Assembly: GCA_044449785.1 (NCBI GenBank)
Contig: JBIOII010000003.1
Span: 1-61,659, forward strand
Direction: 5' to 3'
DNA from: Candidatus Limnocylindrales bacterium
GTDB taxonomy: Bacteria; Chloroflexota; Limnocylindria; Limnocylindrales; CSP1-4
DNA length: 61,659 bases
Below the pieces are notes generated by a model. That model had not been told where the DNA came from, did no database searches, and saw only the letters and a program-made list of their open reading frames with translations. Shown piece by piece: positions 11,789-18,165 of this stretch. Each line of letters opens with the position of its first letter. Positions within the stretch are counted from its first letter, which is position 1. A program made the position numbers and the translations under genes.

Positions 11789-12655
11789 ATGACTCGACGG
11801 CAGCGACTACCGGCACGACCCAACCCAAGGGTCCTGGTCTATGCCGCGTTGTGCGCAATCATGGTTGCCGTTGGTTGGACCTCGGTCATCATCGTCGCAC
11901 CGGCCGCGCACGCGGTCTCCACGACGCCTTCGGCACCGGCGGCCGATCCTTCAGTCCAGGCCACCGCTGCCGTCCCGACCCCCAGTCCAACTGCGTCGCC
12001 CTCGCCAACGCCATCGCCCGTCGTCACGCCGGTGCCAAGCCCGACTCGGACCGCCTTCGAGATCGACCTGTACCGCCCGGGCACATTCGTCTCGCAGATG
12101 AACCGTGATTACTGCATGGCCGGCGCGATCCAGAACATGCTCAACATCATGGGTCCCGCCATCGATCTCTCGACCGGATGGCAGCAGCTGATAGGCAGCA
12201 CGCTCGTTTCGCTGACGACCAGACAGGACAGCTACAACGGTGGCTTCGGTCCCGGCGGTTGGGCCCTCACCATGGCGTGGTTCGGCGCGGGGAAGTACAA
12301 GCTCGTGGTGGATGCCACGTTCGACCAGGCGATGAAAGACGCGGCTCTGGCGCTGAGCGAGACGCAGCGCCCGGTCGGTCTGCTGACGTGGTGGGGCGCC
12401 CATTCCTGGGTCATGACCGGGTTCAAGGCCGACTCGGACCCGCTGCTCTTCCCGGATAGCTTCAAACTGACCGGCGCCTACATCGTGGACCCGTTCTATC
12501 CACGTATCAGCAACATCTGGGGCCAGACGCTCCCACCGGACACGTTCCGTGACATGGCCGCGATGGCCCACAACTACATCGGCTGGAAGCGTCCGGAGGG
12601 CCACTACCCAGATCGCGACGGGAAGTGGCTGCTCGTCATTCCCGTCGACGACTGA
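11789..12655 (+). CDS. Membrane-anchored/secreted protein with Pro/Thr linker and papain-like (C39-like) domain
   Basis: N-terminal TM; PTPSPT linker; Q-x4-YC (QMNRDYC), HSWVMTGF and IVDP as candidate Cys-His-Asp triad. Confidence 0.65.
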   Translation: MTRRQRLPARPNPRVLVYAALCAIMVAVGWTSVIIVAPAAHAVSTTPSAPAADPSVQATAAVPTPSPTASPSPTPSPVVTPVPSPTRTAFEIDLYRPGTFVSQMNRDYCMAGAIQNMLNIMGPAIDLSTGWQQLIGSTLVSLTTRQDSYNGGFGPGGWALTMAWFGAGKYKLVVDATFDQAMKDAALALSETQRPVGLLTWWGAHSWVMTGFKADSDPLLFPDSFKLTGAYIVDPFYPRISNIWGQTLPPDTFRDMAAMAHNYIGWKRPEGHYPDRDGKWLLVIPVDD

Positions 12656-12724
12656 GGCTGAGGCGCGGCGGGGTCGGCGAGGGCCGGCGGGCGGCCCGGG
12701 AGTGGCCCAGGAGTTGCCGGCGGC

Positions 12725-13189
12725 TTACTCGTGGCAGCCCTGGCAGCGGCCCGAGATCGTGACGTGCGACAGGTCGACGGTGAAACCAAGGTCCTCGGAC
12801 AGCGTCGCGACGATGACCGCCCCGACTTCGGGACGTATCTCCCAGGCCTTGCCGCAGGCCACGCAATAAAGGTGGCCGTGGACCTGGGCCGGCAGGACGT
12901 GGTACTCCTCGCGGCCGTCCGGACCGTGGCCGTGCTTGACGAGCCCGAAATCCTCGAGCACGTCCAGCGTGCGATAGACCGTGGACGGAGTCGTCGTGGA
13001 GTCGCGCTGCCTGCAGCGAGCGATGAGCTCGCTCGCGGTCACGTGGCCGTCTTGCTCTCGCAGGACCTCGACCAACGTCCGCCGCTGCGGGGTCCAGCGC
13101 AGGCCGCTCGCCCGCAACCGGCCCGCGATCCCGTCCCAGGGGCTCGTCTCCGGCGTCCCCGGAACACCGCTCGAAGCTGTCTGTGGCAC
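12725..13189 (-). CDS. Fur-family metalloregulator, Nur-like
   Basis: LRWTPQR, GHVT, STVYRTL, KHGH, HGHLYCVACG, SHVT, CQGC; GTG 13189 with GAAGGA SD (ORF start 13363 over-extended). Confidence 0.9.
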   Translation of the reverse strand: MPQTASSGVPGTPETSPWDGIAGRLRASGLRWTPQRRTLVEVLREQDGHVTASELIARCRQRDSTTTPSTVYRTLDVLEDFGLVKHGHGPDGREEYHVLPAQVHGHLYCVACGKAWEIRPEVGAVIVATLSEDLGFTVDLSHVTISGRCQGCHE

Positions 13190-13213
13190 CTGACGGTCCT
13201 TCTCTATATCCGA

Positions 13214-13242
13214 TTGGGCGAATTGGACCAGAGGCGTAGACT
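13214..13242 (+). promoter_or_regulatory. Putative promoter of the nikMN-Q-O operon
   Basis: TTGGGC (13214-13219)-N17-TAGACT (13237-13242). Confidence 0.45.
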
Positions 13243-13248
13243 CAAGGC

Positions 13249-13276
13249 TAGCGCAACGCGTTGCAATAGCGCAACG
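13249..13276. promoter_or_regulatory. Candidate Fur/Nur-family operator
   Basis: Perfect palindrome GCAACGCGTTGC (13253-13264) within direct repeat TAGCGCAACG (13249-13258, 13267-13276). Confidence 0.65.
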
Positions 13277-13305
13277 TATCGTCTGGCGGCACAGGAGGAG
13301 TTGGG

Positions 13306-14589
13306 TTGCACATCCCCGATGGCTACCTCGCCCCCGCCGTCTCGCTTGCGCTTGCGATCCCAACCGTCCCGGTTTGGGCGGTGGCGACCCAGAAGGTCAA
13401 GAGCGTCCTGAACAACCGCACCGTGCCGCTCCTGGCGATCTTCTCGGCGCTCAGCTTCACGGTGATGATGTTCAACGTCCCGGTTCCCGGCGGCACAACC
13501 GCCCACGGGGTAGGGGGGACGCTGATCGCGGTCGTGCTCGGTCCGTGGGCGGCCGCCATCGCTGTCAGTACCGCGCTGATCCTGCAGGCCCTGTTCTTTG
13601 GCGACGGCGGAGTACTGGCGATCTTCGCCAACTGTCTGAACATGGGCATCCTGCTGCCCTTCATCGGTTACGGCACGTATCGATTGCTGGCAGCCGGATC
13701 ACCGGCCCTGTCGACCCGCAGGGCCGTAGCCGCGGGCGTCGGTGCCTACGTCGGGATCACCGTAGCGGCTCTTGCAGTCGGGATCGAGCTCGGCATCGAG
13801 CCGGTCCTCTTCTCGCAGAACGGCCACGCCCTGTATAGCCCGTACGGCTTGTCCGAGGCGATCCCCGCTATGGTGGCCGCGCACGCTTTCGGCGCCTCGA
13901 TCGTGGAGGCGTTGATCACCGGCCTCGGCGTCACCTATCTCCAGCGGCGCCATCCCGAATACCTGACCAGCCTCAGCCGCATCTTCGCCCCCGACGCCCC
14001 GGTCGAGGGCACGGCCCCGCGGCGATCGATCTGGCGCCCGGTCGCGGTCGCGGTGGCCGGCGGTGCGGCCGCTCTCGCGGTCGTCGGGCTTGTGGCCGGC
14101 GGCGGGGACCCCGGTCGCCTCTTCAACGTGGATTGGGCGCGTGTGGACTGGCCCTCGGTCGGGGCGATGCTGCTCGTAACGGCCGTGGTTGGAATCGTCC
14201 TCGTCCCGACCGCCTACTTGCTCCTTCCTCGCGCCGCCAAACGCGTTGGCGCCGGGTTCGTGGCGATGGCCGTTGTGGCGCCGCTCGGGCTTATCGCGCC
14301 CGGGTTTGCCTACGGCGAAGGGAAGGCGACCGATGTCAAGGAGGCATTCGGCTACGTGCCCGCCGGGCTGCAGAGTCTGTCCGGCGTGTTCAGCGCCCCA
14401 CTCGCCGGGTACGACCTGCCGCTGCCGTTCTTCTCCGCGGCGAAGGCTCCGCTATGGCACGCGGCAATCGGCTACGAGATCTCCGGCATCGTCGGAATAC
14501 TGCTGGTCGGCGGCGCCGTCTACGCGATCGCCCGCTCGCTGCGTGGCGCCGGCTCGGCCGAGGCGCGGGCCGAGGGAGCGCGGTCGTGA
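13306..14589 (+). CDS. cbiM: ECF Ni/Co transporter S component, NikMN/CbiMN-type fusion
   Basis: N-terminal MHIPDG metal-binding motif, FNVPVPGGTTAH, QALFFGDGG; C-terminal NikN-like region (PLGLIAP..YGE...GYVPAGL...APLAGY); TTG start with GGAGGAG SD. Confidence 0.92.
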   Translation: MHIPDGYLAPAVSLALAIPTVPVWAVATQKVKSVLNNRTVPLLAIFSALSFTVMMFNVPVPGGTTAHGVGGTLIAVVLGPWAAAIAVSTALILQALFFGDGGVLAIFANCLNMGILLPFIGYGTYRLLAAGSPALSTRRAVAAGVGAYVGITVAALAVGIELGIEPVLFSQNGHALYSPYGLSEAIPAMVAAHAFGASIVEALITGLGVTYLQRRHPEYLTSLSRIFAPDAPVEGTAPRRSIWRPVAVAVAGGAAALAVVGLVAGGGDPGRLFNVDWARVDWPSVGAMLLVTAVVGIVLVPTAYLLLPRAAKRVGAGFVAMAVVAPLGLIAPGFAYGEGKATDVKEAFGYVPAGLQSLSGVFSAPLAGYDLPLPFFSAAKAPLWHAAIGYEISGIVGILLVGGAVYAIARSLRGAGSAEARAEGARS

Positions 14590-15458
14590 CCACGGCGACC
14601 CCGTCGGTCGGACGGGCCGCCCGCGACGGCCGGATCGGCTGGCTCGAAAAGACCGTCGGCGGAATAACCGCCAACGTCGAGCACGCGATCTTCACGGAGC
14701 GGCATGCGCGATCCGCCGGCTGGCTCCAGCGGCGCGATCCGCGGGCCAAGATGGTCGGCACGCTCATCGCCATCCTGGCCGCGAGCCTTACGAGCTCGCT
14801 GGTCGGCCTTGGGCTCTTGTACGGAGCCACGCTTGCGGCGGCTCGCGCCAGCCGGGTCCCGTTCGGTTTCTTCGTAAAGCGTGTCTGGCTCGGCATTCCG
14901 TTCTTCGCCGGGATCGTCGTGGTGCCCGCGATCTTCTTCGTTCCCGGCGCACGGGTCTTCGATCTGGCGGTCGGGCCCGCGCATCTGGCGCCTTCCTGGA
15001 ACGGTCTGGCGGGAGCGGCGCTGTTCGTCAGCCGAGTCGGCGTCTCCGTCTCGCTGGCCGTCCTGCTGGTCGTAACGACGCCGTGGGCCGACGTCCTCAA
15101 GAGCCTGCGTGCGCTCAAGGTGCCACAGGTTTTCGTGCTCGTCCTGTCGATGACTTATCGATACATCTTCCTTTTCCTTCACACGGCCAACGGCATCCTG
15201 CTGGCGCGGAAGAGCCGCGTGGTGGGTCGCACGACCGGCGCCGAGCAGCGTCGGTGGATCACCGGCACCATGGGCAACCTCATGAGCCGAGCCTTCAAGA
15301 TGAGCAACGACGTGTACGCGGCCATGCTTGCCCGTGGCTTCGGCGGCGAGGTGCGGAGCTACTCGACGTATCGCTTGCGCGTCTCGGACCTGGCCGCGCT
15401 GGCAGGCGTTCTCGGGCTGGCAGTGGCCGTCGTCCTCGCCGGGCGGGCCCTGCCATGA
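14586..15458 (+). CDS. cbiQ: ECF Ni/Co transporter T component (CbiQ/NikQ)
   Basis: LQRRDPRAK, MTYRYIFL, ARKSR, AMLARGFGG motifs; GTGA overlap at 14586. Confidence 0.92.
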   Translation: MTTATPSVGRAARDGRIGWLEKTVGGITANVEHAIFTERHARSAGWLQRRDPRAKMVGTLIAILAASLTSSLVGLGLLYGATLAAARASRVPFGFFVKRVWLGIPFFAGIVVVPAIFFVPGARVFDLAVGPAHLAPSWNGLAGAALFVSRVGVSVSLAVLLVVTTPWADVLKSLRALKVPQVFVLVLSMTYRYIFLFLHTANGILLARKSRVVGRTTGAEQRRWITGTMGNLMSRAFKMSNDVYAAMLARGFGGEVRSYSTYRLRVSDLAALAGVLGLAVAVVLAGRALP

Positions 15459-16381
15459 GCGAGACGGCCCTCGAGCAAGCGGTCGCGGCGGCGCCAGTCG
15501 GTCCGGGCGAGCCGCTGTTCGAGTTCCACGACGTGGGCTACAGCTACGCCGGACGCCAGGTGGCGCTCGAGAGCGTCAGCCTCCGGATCTGGCGGGGCGA
15601 GCGAGTGGCCCTGCTCGGAGCCAACGGCAGCGGCAAGTCCACTCTCCTCAAGCTCCTCGACGGCGTCGTCGGACCGACGCAGGGCAGCATTCGGGCACTC
15701 GGTCGTGACGTCGCGGCGGTGGCGGCCGGTGAAGACGGGTTCCGTTTCCACCGCGAGGTCGGGCTCGTATTCCAGGATCCCGACATACAGCTCTTCAGCG
15801 CCACGGTGCTCGACGACGTCGCCTTCGGACCGCTCCAGCTCGGCCTCACCGGGGAGGAAGTGCGGGCGCGATGCGACGAGGCGATGGCCGAGATGGCGAT
15901 CGCGCACCTGGCGGACCGCGCCCCCTTCGAGCTGTCGGGTGGCGAGAAGAAGAGGGCGGCCATCGCTTCGGTTCTCTCGCTCAGGCCCGAAGTTGTGCTG
16001 CTGGACGAACCGACGGCATCTCTGGACCCGCGAACGAAATGGGTTCTGGTCGACTTGATCCAGCGGCTGGGAAACGCGGGCAGGACGCTGGTGGTGGCCA
16101 CGCACGAGCTGGACATCGTGCCTCTTATCGCCGACCGCGTCGTCGTCCTGAGCGAGCAGGGGCAGATCGTCGCCGACGGCGCCCCGGCCGCGATCCTGGC
16201 CGATCGCGAGCTCCTGATACGGGTGAACCTGATCCACGAGCACCTTCACGAGCACGGTTCGGTAGCTCACTCGCATCCCCACGACGACTCCGAGCGCCAC
16301 CACGGCGAGCGCGTCGAGCCCCACGAAGCCGCGCTGCCGGAGAGGGCGGGCGTCCCGGTGGAAGGCGACCGCCGAGACTAA
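15455..16381 (+). CDS. cbiO: ECF Ni/Co transporter ATPase (CbiO/NikO) with His-rich tail
   Basis: GANGSGKST, FQDPD, LSGGEKK, LLDEPT, ATH motifs; tail HEHLHEHGSVAHSHPH; ATGA overlap at 15455. Confidence 0.93.
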   Translation: MSETALEQAVAAAPVGPGEPLFEFHDVGYSYAGRQVALESVSLRIWRGERVALLGANGSGKSTLLKLLDGVVGPTQGSIRALGRDVAAVAAGEDGFRFHREVGLVFQDPDIQLFSATVLDDVAFGPLQLGLTGEEVRARCDEAMAEMAIAHLADRAPFELSGGEKKRAAIASVLSLRPEVVLLDEPTASLDPRTKWVLVDLIQRLGNAGRTLVVATHELDIVPLIADRVVVLSEQGQIVADGAPAAILADRELLIRVNLIHEHLHEHGSVAHSHPHDDSERHHGERVEPHEAALPERAGVPVEGDRRD

Positions 16382-16480
16382 GGCGAAATCTTGGATCGGG
16401 CGCGCTGGAGCGGATCTGCGCCGCGCGGTCGTGAACGCGACGCCGCCTCCGGCCTGACGGCGACCCGGGCGGGAGGCTCC

Positions 16481-16486
16481 TATACT
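16481..16486 (+). promoter_or_regulatory. -10 element (leaderless geometry)
   Basis: TATACT followed by 6 nt, then ATG 16493. Confidence 0.55.
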
Positions 16487-16492
16487 CCCGCC

Positions 16493-16543
16493 ATGCCAGA
16501 GTCGAGCTATTCGGCCGCCGCTCCAGCCGGACCGATCCGATGA
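16493..16543 (+). CDS. Putative 16-aa leaderless uORF (MPESSYSAAAPAGPIR)
   Basis: ATG at predicted +1; its TGA (16541-16543) overlaps the ATG (16540) of the next gene. Confidence 0.35.
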   Translation: MPESSYSAAAPAGPIR

Positions 16544-18165
16544 CCGGCCCCTACCAGTCGCCGTTCGACGCCGCTTCCCGGAGGAACCGCCCGCGCCGGC
16601 TTCTGGTCGTCGGCGCGGCGGTGGGGCTGGCCGTCGTCGTGGCGGCAATGGCGGCCTGGCACCCGATGGCAACCAACGCGGCGCGAACGAGCGTGACCAT
16701 TCTCGGGGCCTCGGCAGCGTCGCTGGACCCGGCGGTCCAGTCCGATGCGGGCAGCGCCCAGGTCGTCTCGCAGGTCTTCGAGTCGCTGACCGCAATTGAC
16801 GTTTCGGGGCGCGTCCAGCCCGCCCTCGCGGCCAGCTGGACGTCGAGCAACGGCGGCAAGATCGTCGTCTTTCATCTGCGGACGGGGCTGACTTTCTCAG
16901 ATGGGACGCCCCTGGGCGCCGCGGACGTCGTGTCGAGCTGGATGAGGGTGCTCAATCCCAGCCAGCCGAGCCAGCTCGCCTCATTGCTCGACGGCGTCGT
17001 GGGGGCAAGCGCCTATCGAGAGGGGAGCGGCCAGGCCTCGGGTGTCGGAATAAAGGCCATCGGCTCGACGGACGTGGAGGTAGATCTCGTCAGCCCGGAC
17101 GCGGACTTCCCATCGATCGCCTCGAGCCCGACGCTCGCGGTCGTGCCGCCGCAGCTGGACTCGAACCCGGCGCTGCTGGCCCCGGGGACCTTCGTGGGCA
17201 GCGGCGCCTACGTGGTTTCCGCCCTGACCGCTACCGAGACCACTCTGACGGCGAATCCTCACTACTGGGCCGGTTCCCCATCGATAACCACGGTCCATCT
17301 GCTCAGTAGTATCGGCGGGAAGAGCCCGGTCTCCGAGTTCCAGGCCGGCAATCTCGACTACACGCCGATCTCGCTGTACGACGCCTCGTGGATCGCCTAC
17401 GACTCGACGCTCGGGCCGGCTCTCCGCATAGAGCCGTCGCCATCGACGGAGTTCTATGGCTTCAACACGACCAAGGCGCCGTTCAACAACGTGCACGTCC
17501 GGCGCGCCTTCGAGATGGGCATCAACTGGAACCGCATCGTCGCGCTGCTGTCGGACCCGCTCGAGGTTTCGGCGACCGGCATGGTTCCGGCCGGCGTTCC
17601 CGGCCACAGCGCGAACAACTACGGGCCGGAATTCAACCTGGCGCAGGCCAGGTCGGAGCTGGCGGCGGCCGGCTTCCCAAACGGCGTCGGCTTCCCGAAG
17701 ATCACCCTGGTCACCGGTGGGGCCACCCTGGACGGCGCGATAATCCGCCAGCTGCACGACAACCTCGGCATCGACATCGGGTACCTGATCGAGGATTGGA
17801 CGACGTACAACCAGCAGCTCCTGACCGACCCGCCGGCGTTCTGGGAGATGGACTGGGTCGCCGACTATCCAGGCGCGAACGATTTCCTCGGACTTCTCCT
17901 GGGTTCGGGTAAGACGAACAACTTCGGCCGATGGACGTCGCCCGATTTCGATGCCGCAATCGCTAAGGCGCTCGCCGCTACCGATGCGACCTCGATGCAG
18001 CAAGCGTTCGATCAGGCGCAGGCGATCGTGCTCGACCAGGCCCCGGTCATTCCGGTCGACTACGGTGCCGGCTATTCGCTGGCGGCGAAGGGTCTTCTTG
18101 GGGCGCAGCCGAACGGCCAGGGACTCGTGCGCTACGCCGGACTGGCCTGGGCGGCGGGCGCATGA
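16540..18165 (+). CDS. ABC transporter family 5 substrate-binding protein (OppA/DppA-like), TM-anchored, no cognate permease in window
   Basis: SLDPA, FESLT, FHLRTGLTFSDGTPL, GSGAY, WVADYPGANDFL motifs; no lipobox Cys. Confidence 0.9.
   Translation: MTGPYQSPFDAASRRNRPRRLLVVGAAVGLAVVVAAMAAWHPMATNAARTSVTILGASAASLDPAVQSDAGSAQVVSQVFESLTAIDVSGRVQPALAASWTSSNGGKIVVFHLRTGLTFSDGTPLGAADVVSSWMRVLNPSQPSQLASLLDGVVGASAYREGSGQASGVGIKAIGSTDVEVDLVSPDADFPSIASSPTLAVVPPQLDSNPALLAPGTFVGSGAYVVSALTATETTLTANPHYWAGSPSITTVHLLSSIGGKSPVSEFQAGNLDYTPISLYDASWIAYDSTLGPALRIEPSPSTEFYGFNTTKAPFNNVHVRRAFEMGINWNRIVALLSDPLEVSATGMVPAGVPGHSANNYGPEFNLAQARSELAAAGFPNGVGFPKITLVTGGATLDGAIIRQLHDNLGIDIGYLIEDWTTYNQQLLTDPPAFWEMDWVADYPGANDFLGLLLGSGKTNNFGRWTSPDFDAAIAKALAATDATSMQQAFDQAQAIVLDQAPVIPVDYGAGYSLAAKGLLGAQPNGQGLVRYAGLAWAAGA

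Follow-up and report, generated by a model that had tools for sequence, protein, structure and literature searches.

A probable Nur-type operator with a 4-bp spacer between a nur-like gene and nikM in a Chloroflexota bacterium

The window (the whole 61,659-nt stretch of DNA that was analyzed) contains a nur-like gene of the Fur family and, divergent from it, the gene cluster nikM-nikQ-nikO (Table 1). The product of the Fur-family gene matches the Pfam family FUR (PF01475; E 1.8e-21, residues 28-138). The nikM product matches Pfam CbiM (E 1.9e-53) and, with 290 bits and above the cut-off, the NCBIfam model PRK11909; its PDGLE part is a weak match (E 0.014). NCBIfam models for ECF ATPases match nikO below their cut-offs. 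By reading of the sequence, nikM and nikQ overlap at their stop and start codons in GTGA, and nikQ and nikO in ATGA. The GGAGG and the start of the nikM product, MHIPDGYL, are kept in relatives, which in public genomes are MAGs of 'Candidatus Limnocylindrales' or Chloroflexota. The genome from which the window comes, that of an uncultured bacterium, is 2.3 Mb and 64.5% complete. No Rfam family was found within positions 12600-14000 and no B12 or NiCo riboswitch in the nikM leader, and a Pfam search found no ribbon-helix-helix NikR gene at the locus. Between the two divergent genes lies a 20-bp palindrome, and our analysis indicates that it is very probably a real operator.

Table 1. Positions of genes, the palindrome and predicted promoter elements at the nur-nikM locus.
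Feature	Position	Strand	Remarks
nur-like Fur-family regulator gene	12725..13189	-	GTG start at 13189; 154 aa; Shine-Dalgarno GAAGGA upstream
-35-like hexamer TTGGGC, predicted nikM promoter	13214..13219	+	weak match to TTGACA
-10 hexamer TAGACT, predicted nikM promoter	13237..13242	+	conserved; predicted
Candidate nur promoter zone	13238..13274	-	all candidates overlap or abut the operator
nur promoter candidate of the earlier note: TTGCGC, N18, TAGCCT	13274-13269 and 13250-13245	-	
Alternative nur promoter candidate: TTGCAA, N17, GAGTCT	13266-13261 and 13243-13238	-	
Probable operator, 20-bp palindrome TAGCGCAA-CGCG-TTGCAATA	13249..13268	both	conservation, near-uniqueness and gene linkage
Second TAGCGCAACG copy, including third GCAA (13271)	13267..13276	+	restricted to the window and its closest relative
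Quasi-palindrome GTATCGTCTGGCGGCAC, genus consensus GT.tCG.CAGgcG..AC	13276..13292	+	conserved in the genus
nikM Shine-Dalgarno AGGAGGAG (13293-13300) and TTG start codon (13306)	13293..13308	+	sequence reading
nikM/cbiM, ECF-transporter substrate component with C-terminal PDGLE-like extension	13306..14589	+	profile matches
nikQ/cbiQ, ECF T component	14586..15458	+	Pfam CbiQ, E 6.5e-33
nikO/cbiO, ECF ATPase	15455..16381	+	Pfam ABC_tran, E 1.9e-32

The regulator resembles Nur, as an earlier note on this DNA had supposed of the adjacent Fur-family protein. Its best match in the PDB is 3EYY, the Nur of Streptomyces coelicolor (E 4.6e-23, 85 bits); the next match, a Fur, lies nine orders of magnitude behind (E 2e-14, 57 bits). 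In the alignment to 3EYY, the Ni-site residues H70, H72 and H126 of Nur correspond to H86, H88 and H142 of the window protein, and the M-site residues H33, H88 and H90 to H49, H104 and H106. Nur H81 and E101, the DNA-contact residues Y56 and R57, and four cysteines (two CxxC pairs) are also kept. Nur D37 is replaced by S, and the M-site position Nur H86 is Q102 in the window protein and variable in relatives; in S. coelicolor, the substitution H86A does not impair DNA binding (PMC2691836). The Ni-site triad is kept in 30 of 30 class orthologues, and is conserved only in Nur orthologues (An et al., PMC2691836). The window protein therefore combines the FUR domain, the Ni-site triad and a sequence that resembles Nur more than it does Fur, Zur or PerR, the sequence features of the Nur subfamily. 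Two actinobacterial tblastn matches (L006 and L007) were rejected as Nur comparators; we do not regard them as Nur because the Ni-site is missing.

The intergenic region has the layout TTGGGC(13214)-N17-TAGACT(13237)-caaggc-TAGCGCAACGCGTTGCAATAGCGCAACG-TATCGTCTGGCGGCAC-AGGAGGAG-ttggg-TTG(13306). The palindrome contains the half-site hexamers GCGCAA (13251-13256) and TTGCAA (13261-13266), separated by a variable 4-bp spacer, and is located 6 nt downstream of the nikM -10, with 38 nt between it and the nikM start codon. A repeat search found a wider inverted repeat at 13247-13270, in which 10 of 12 positions are complementary. The earlier note had described a compound operator over face-to-face promoters, and each sequence element that it named is present: the palindrome GCAACGCGTTGC (13253-13264), the direct repeat TAGCGCAACG with a period of 18 bp (13249-13258 and 13267-13276), GCAA units at 13253, 13263 and 13271, and the promoter hexamers of both strands, spaced by 17 nt on the plus strand and 18 nt on the minus strand. 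The functional unit, however, is probably narrower than first proposed, namely the 20-bp palindrome.

We think it quite unlikely that the palindrome, the 18-bp repeat and the third GCAA together form an extended array for at least two dimers. Such an array would be in line with the ability of Fur-family proteins to form oligomers on DNA, with the exact match between the two repeat copies in the window, and with the conservation of TAGCG at either side of the core. However, the full second copy of TAGCGCAACG and the third GCAA each occur in 2 of 29 genus sequences, and they are absent from other families. Where the second repeat would be, only TAGCG.A is conserved among these 29 sequences. Because the second copy and the third GCAA are confined to the window and its closest relative, the array is probably incidental, and the second copy is probably not a separate binding unit.

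The pattern GCAA-N4-TTGC is not significant by itself in the window: there is one match against 0.44 expected, and at least one match occurs in 36 of 100 shuffled sequences. A consensus promoter scan gave no site at threshold, and the nikM hexamers match the sigma-70 consensus at 7 of 12 positions. Thus, the case for the operator rests on context and conservation. When six orthologous spacers were aligned, TA..GCAA-N4-TTGCAATAG was invariant and the 4-bp center was variable. The consensus of 29 distinct genus sequences is cTAGCGCAAc..gTTGCAATAGCGa, in which GCAA and TTGCAATA are invariant and the 4-bp spacer again varies. The earlier note had proposed that loss of the motif from orthologous spacers would speak against an operator; the motif is conserved there. 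In the 2.3-Mb genome, TAnnGCAA-N4-TTGCnnTA is unique, and a weight matrix gave the operator 32 bits versus 16.4 bits for the runner-up. A scan of the genus found GCAA-N4-TTGCAATA in 36 of 51 genomes, nearly always as a single site, with none for the control. Where there are extra copies, they belong to a second nikM paralogue or to a duplicate contig, except for one inside a recombinase ORF; this exception, the second site in G230 (L085, within a serine-recombinase ORF), was taken as a chance match.

The earlier note had suggested a genome-wide scan for defining a regulon. Searches of the window's own genome with the weight matrix and with a degenerate pattern gave no site other than the operator, and the SBP_bac_5 gene at 16540 has no such site in front of it. 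With about one site per genome, in its own genome and in relatives, the regulon appears to be local, consisting of the transporter and the regulator. One weak word in the same genome, TTGCAA-N4-TTGCTC on contig C5 (19214), was rejected as a further site: situated between a YceI-like gene and another gene, it has a different palindrome of its own and is unlinked to the hydrogenase genes 3 kb away. The surrounding region (G000 contig C5:19200-19310, outside the window) is a divergent intergenic region before a YceI-like gene, with TTGCAAGTCCTTGCTC and a separate inverted repeat, GCAACTA...TAGTTGC, which is probably the operator of another regulator.

The site is also found across the class. A nur-like gene is present in 167 of 201 genomes of Limnocylindria. 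In 24 of 30 loci, TTGCAA-N4-TTGCAA with up to 2 mismatches precedes this gene at a distance of 31-110 nt; 2 of the 30 were too truncated for evaluation. Five nur-like loci have no recognizable 6-4-6 site within 300 nt upstream: L016 (G146:C6), L017 (G020:C5), L020, L028 and L035. For the G020 locus, a site was located at nikM, 3.1 kb upstream. The divergent neighbor of the site varies, and can be a MHIPDGYL-type CbiM, a HAPDGF-type CbiM, or a NicO/NiCoT protein with a His-rich loop. The exact sequence TTGCAA-N4-TTGCAA occurs in 24 of the 201 genomes, once in each, and the reversed control pattern in none. Twenty of these exact sites are directly upstream of nur, two are at nikM, one is before a LacI-type gene, and one is on an AT-rich coding contig; the last (L045) was rejected as an operator and taken as a chance match. 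At L041 (G020:C5) and L042 (G197:C10), the 6-4-6 site precedes nikM and the nur-like gene is about 3 kb away. Where the nur/nikM pair is split, the operator stays with the transporter.

These neighborhoods bear on whether the palindrome could be bound by another factor, such as a dimer of the LacI, TetR or MarR type, with the Fur-family gene a mere neighbor. One genome has the identical TTGCAA-N4-TTGCAA before a LacI-family gene (L040), a caution that this 16-mer can also occur outside the Nur-type system. However, the site has the nur-like gene as its constant companion in many genera and with each of three transporter types, whereas no gene for any other regulator shows conservation at the locus. 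In addition, the site remained at nikM within the same cluster where nur had moved 3 kb. We consider binding by another factor extremely unlikely. The L040 word itself (G110:C24:173028-173043) is at the start of the LacI-family gene, beside a xylose-isomerase-like TIM-barrel gene, and is probably a LacI-type operator.

The spacing of the half-sites differs from that of the published Nur box. The Streptomyces box is tTGCaa-N5-ttGCAA, a 6-5-6 arrangement (PMC2691836), and Nur binds the nikM promoter of S. coelicolor in a nickel-dependent manner, with TTGCAA-type half-sites in the footprint (PMC2691836). The operator in the window has TTGCAA-type half-sites (GCGCAA and TTGCAA, compared with TTGCAA and TTGCAA in many relatives) and lies at the predicted promoter of a probable nickel-uptake gene, but its spacer is 4 bp rather than 5 bp. 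The counts for the two spacings are reciprocal. In the 201 Limnocylindria genomes, 22 of the 24 exact N4 sites are at nur/nik loci; exact N5 gave 3 sites in 2 genomes versus 4 for the control, none of them at nur/nik loci. In 151 genomes of Actinomycetes, exact N5 gave 29 sites in 28 genomes versus about 12 for the control. Four of these are 19-85 nt upstream of cbiM/nikM, with flanks ttgTTGCAA-N5-TTGCAAtaa, and none of the 13 exact N4 sites in the same genomes is near cbiM, nicO or fur genes. We conclude from these reciprocal counts that the one-base difference in spacing is real and lineage-specific. They agree with the description in the earlier note of a Nur-type box with one base less spacing, as does the published consensus (PMC2691836). 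Because the defining 6-5-6 spacing is absent, the site is best described as a 6-4-6 variant, very probably of the Nur box, and not as a canonical Nur box. Recognition by a Nur-type dimer is thus an extrapolation from the footprinted 5-bp box to a spacer of 4 bp.

The position of the palindrome suggests how it could act on nikM. The hexamer TAnnnT (mostly TAGACT) is present in 29 of 29 genus sequences within 2 nt of the -10 column, 5-7 nt before the operator, and the genus consensus for the -35 is gaTTGtgG, 17-18 nt before the -10. The earlier note had placed the operator on the predicted +1 of the nikM promoter, and the conserved TAGACT 6 nt upstream is in agreement with this. If transcription starts about 7 nt after the -10, the operator would cover approximately +1 to +20 of the nikM transcript. 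Relative to this predicted start, the position is a repressing one.

Promoters in other families of the class have a different layout. On the transporter side, a half-site hexamer is 17-18 nt from a TAnnnT, the position of a -35. On the nur side, a hexamer is 14-19 nt, or in six loci 25-27 nt, from a TAnaCT, with an ATG or GTG 7 nt beyond this TAnaCT. From this distance, the nur mRNA is expected to be leaderless in those families, whereas nur in the window's genus has a Shine-Dalgarno leader. Judging from these distances, the operator in other families appears to double as the -35 elements of two back-to-back promoters, which would make autoregulation of nur the ancestral state. Downstream of the cluster in the window, at 16470-16545, ctTATACTcccgccATG lies upstream of the SBP_bac_5 gene; its TAnaCT-N6/7-ATG layout is also that of the leaderless nur promoters in relatives, and there is no Nur-type site within this region.

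It could be argued from the distances in other families that the hexamers are merely promoter elements, namely back-to-back -35 boxes of divergent genes that resemble TTGACA. Several observations make this very unlikely. In the window's genus the palindrome is downstream of the nikM -10 and is equally conserved. Conservation extends to the exact N4 spacing and to the TA flanks, and the site occurs about once per genome, whereas pairs of -35-like hexamers are expected to be common. In addition, footprinting in Streptomyces shows Nur on the same half-sites (PMC2691836). A dual role as operator and -35 in other lineages is likely.

For nur itself, we found no promoter candidate conserved at a single position. 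On the nur strand, TAnnnT occurs at three places around the operator, in 9, 10 and 6 of 28 sequences. The minus-strand promoter proposed in the earlier note is not conserved, as 2 of 29 sequences contain its -35 hexamer TTGCGC and 34% have a TAnnnT at its -10. The alternative candidate would use the invariant operator hexamer as its -35. Since every candidate overlaps or abuts the operator, nur is likely to be repressed in the window's genus, and it is likely that one site represses both nur and nikM, as the note had proposed.

Taken together, we consider it quite probable that the palindrome is the operator of the adjacent Nur-like regulator, controlling nikM-nikQ-nikO, most likely in response to Ni(II). 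We postulate that a dimer of the metal-loaded regulator (the metal most likely being Ni(II)) binds GCGCAA and TTGCAA, 4 bp apart. With the site at roughly +1 to +20 relative to the predicted nikM start, the bound dimer could block open-complex formation or promoter escape, and the nikM-nikQ-nikO importer would be switched off. When nickel is scarce, the operator would be free and the importer would be made. Very probably, the regulator gene is subject to this operator as well, which would limit its transcription and result in autoregulation.

The identity of the metal deserves separate consideration. CbiM-type transporters can carry cobalt, and the same circuit could respond to cobalt or another divalent metal, with a CbiMQO operon under a cobalt-sensing regulator. 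The Pfam and NCBIfam names for the transporter say 'cobalt', and the M components of Ni-type and Co-type ECF transporters have the N-terminal metal-binding motif MHIPxG in common. Moreover, metal specificity is poorly predictable within the Fur family (PMC11672702), and the coordination at the Ni-site in the Nur crystal may partly reflect crystallization conditions (2019 review, PMC7055735). Four observations favor nickel instead: the Nur Ni-site triad is fully conserved, sister lineages pair the regulator and operator with NicO-type transporters carrying His-rich loops, a cobalamin riboswitch is missing, and a [NiFe]-hydrogenase is present. We therefore think that cobalt or another divalent metal is unlikely to be the effector.

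The large subunit of the [NiFe]-hydrogenase is encoded in the same genome outside the window (G000 contig C5:14649-15980), in a frame of 444 aa with the motifs RICGIC and DPCISCATH. Matches to PF00374 were found in 21 of 21 genus genomes searched; most are partial, and the motifs were checked in the window's own genome. By eye, the ORF downstream of the large subunit has a region like a hydrogenase maturation protease. Urease was rejected as a nickel consumer, being absent from 21 genus genomes.

There is one more conserved element in the nikM leader, a 17-nt quasi-palindrome between the operator and the nikM Shine-Dalgarno sequence. No conserved RNA structure or covariation was found in the leader beyond the invariant palindrome. 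As a regulon motif, the 17-nt block was rejected since it is not enriched in its own genome (46 matches versus 30 for a control pattern), and as a nur promoter it was rejected since no consistent -35 and -10 could be fitted. The block may mark where a second regulator binds, or it may belong to the nur promoter. An arrangement with two inputs, in which a dimer geometry specific to Chloroflexota, mirrored in the 6-4-6 operator, does not cross-recognize the actinobacterial 6-5-6 box and positions 13276-13292 bind a second regulator, is in our view improbable. If true, nickel import would depend on a further signal in addition to nickel status.

The system proposed here is similar in many respects to that of S. 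coelicolor Nur (PMC2691836; 3EYY). The residues of the Ni-site, the M-site triad H33/H88/H90, and Y56 and R57 are kept, the palindromes have TTGCAA-type half-sites around a non-conserved spacer, the target is a nikM-type ECF importer, and the expected logic is that of a metal-bound repressor that switches off uptake. Unlike in S. coelicolor, the spacer is 4 bp, consistently across the class, Q and S replace H86 and D37, the host belongs to the Chloroflexota (Limnocylindria) and not to the Actinomycetota, and the regulator gene adjoins its target, with an operator common to both. The Streptomyces Nur regulon also has sodF/sodF2 and nikABCDE as targets, whereas no further operator of this kind was found here in a genome that is 64.5% complete. 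The boxes of Fur, Zur and PerR are comparable in that a dimeric Fur-family repressor acts at a palindrome over a metal-uptake promoter, commonly with autoregulation. However, those boxes are AT-rich with half-sites 1 base apart (PMC2691836), whereas here the half-sites are of the TTGCAA type and 4 bp apart. Finally, operons controlled by NikR (nikABCDE/nikMNQO) or by a B12 riboswitch (cbiMNQO) similarly turn off a nickel or cobalt importer when the metal or cofactor is sufficient, but the locus has neither a NikR gene nor a riboswitch and instead has a Fur-family regulator.

In the literature searched, Nur is described only in S. coelicolor and actinobacteria, with experiments only in S. coelicolor. 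The locus and its roughly 200 relatives would thus extend Nur-type nickel sensing to the Chloroflexota. They also constitute a natural experiment, with the same half-sites, largely the same ligands (H86 and D37 differ), and a spacer shorter by 1 bp, which turns one half-site by about 36 degrees and moves it 3.4 Å relative to the other. Comparing both systems could reveal how Fur-family dimers set the spacing of their half-sites. For annotation, we suggest that CbiM- or NicO-type transporters behind such a box be treated as probably nickel-regulated rather than as 'cobalt' transporters. The rule would apply to widespread soil and freshwater bacteria that carry [NiFe]-hydrogenases.

Other classes of Chloroflexota contain more distant Fur-family genes with the Ni-site triad, some of them beside N4 sites with 1 mismatch. 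In two such loci of another class (L139 and L141), the Fur-family gene with the Ni-site is followed by a TTGCAA-N4-TTGCAA with 1 mismatch and then by a gene for a secreted protein, in which a likeness to a CopC-type metal-binding domain was seen by eye. At L142 (G505:C24), a Fur-family regulator is encoded in tandem with nikM; its residues at the positions of Nur H70 and H72 are E and D, H126 is kept, and TTGCAACTCGTCGCAA overlaps the start of its gene. This looks like a Nur-type box that is used by a regulator without the full Ni-site.
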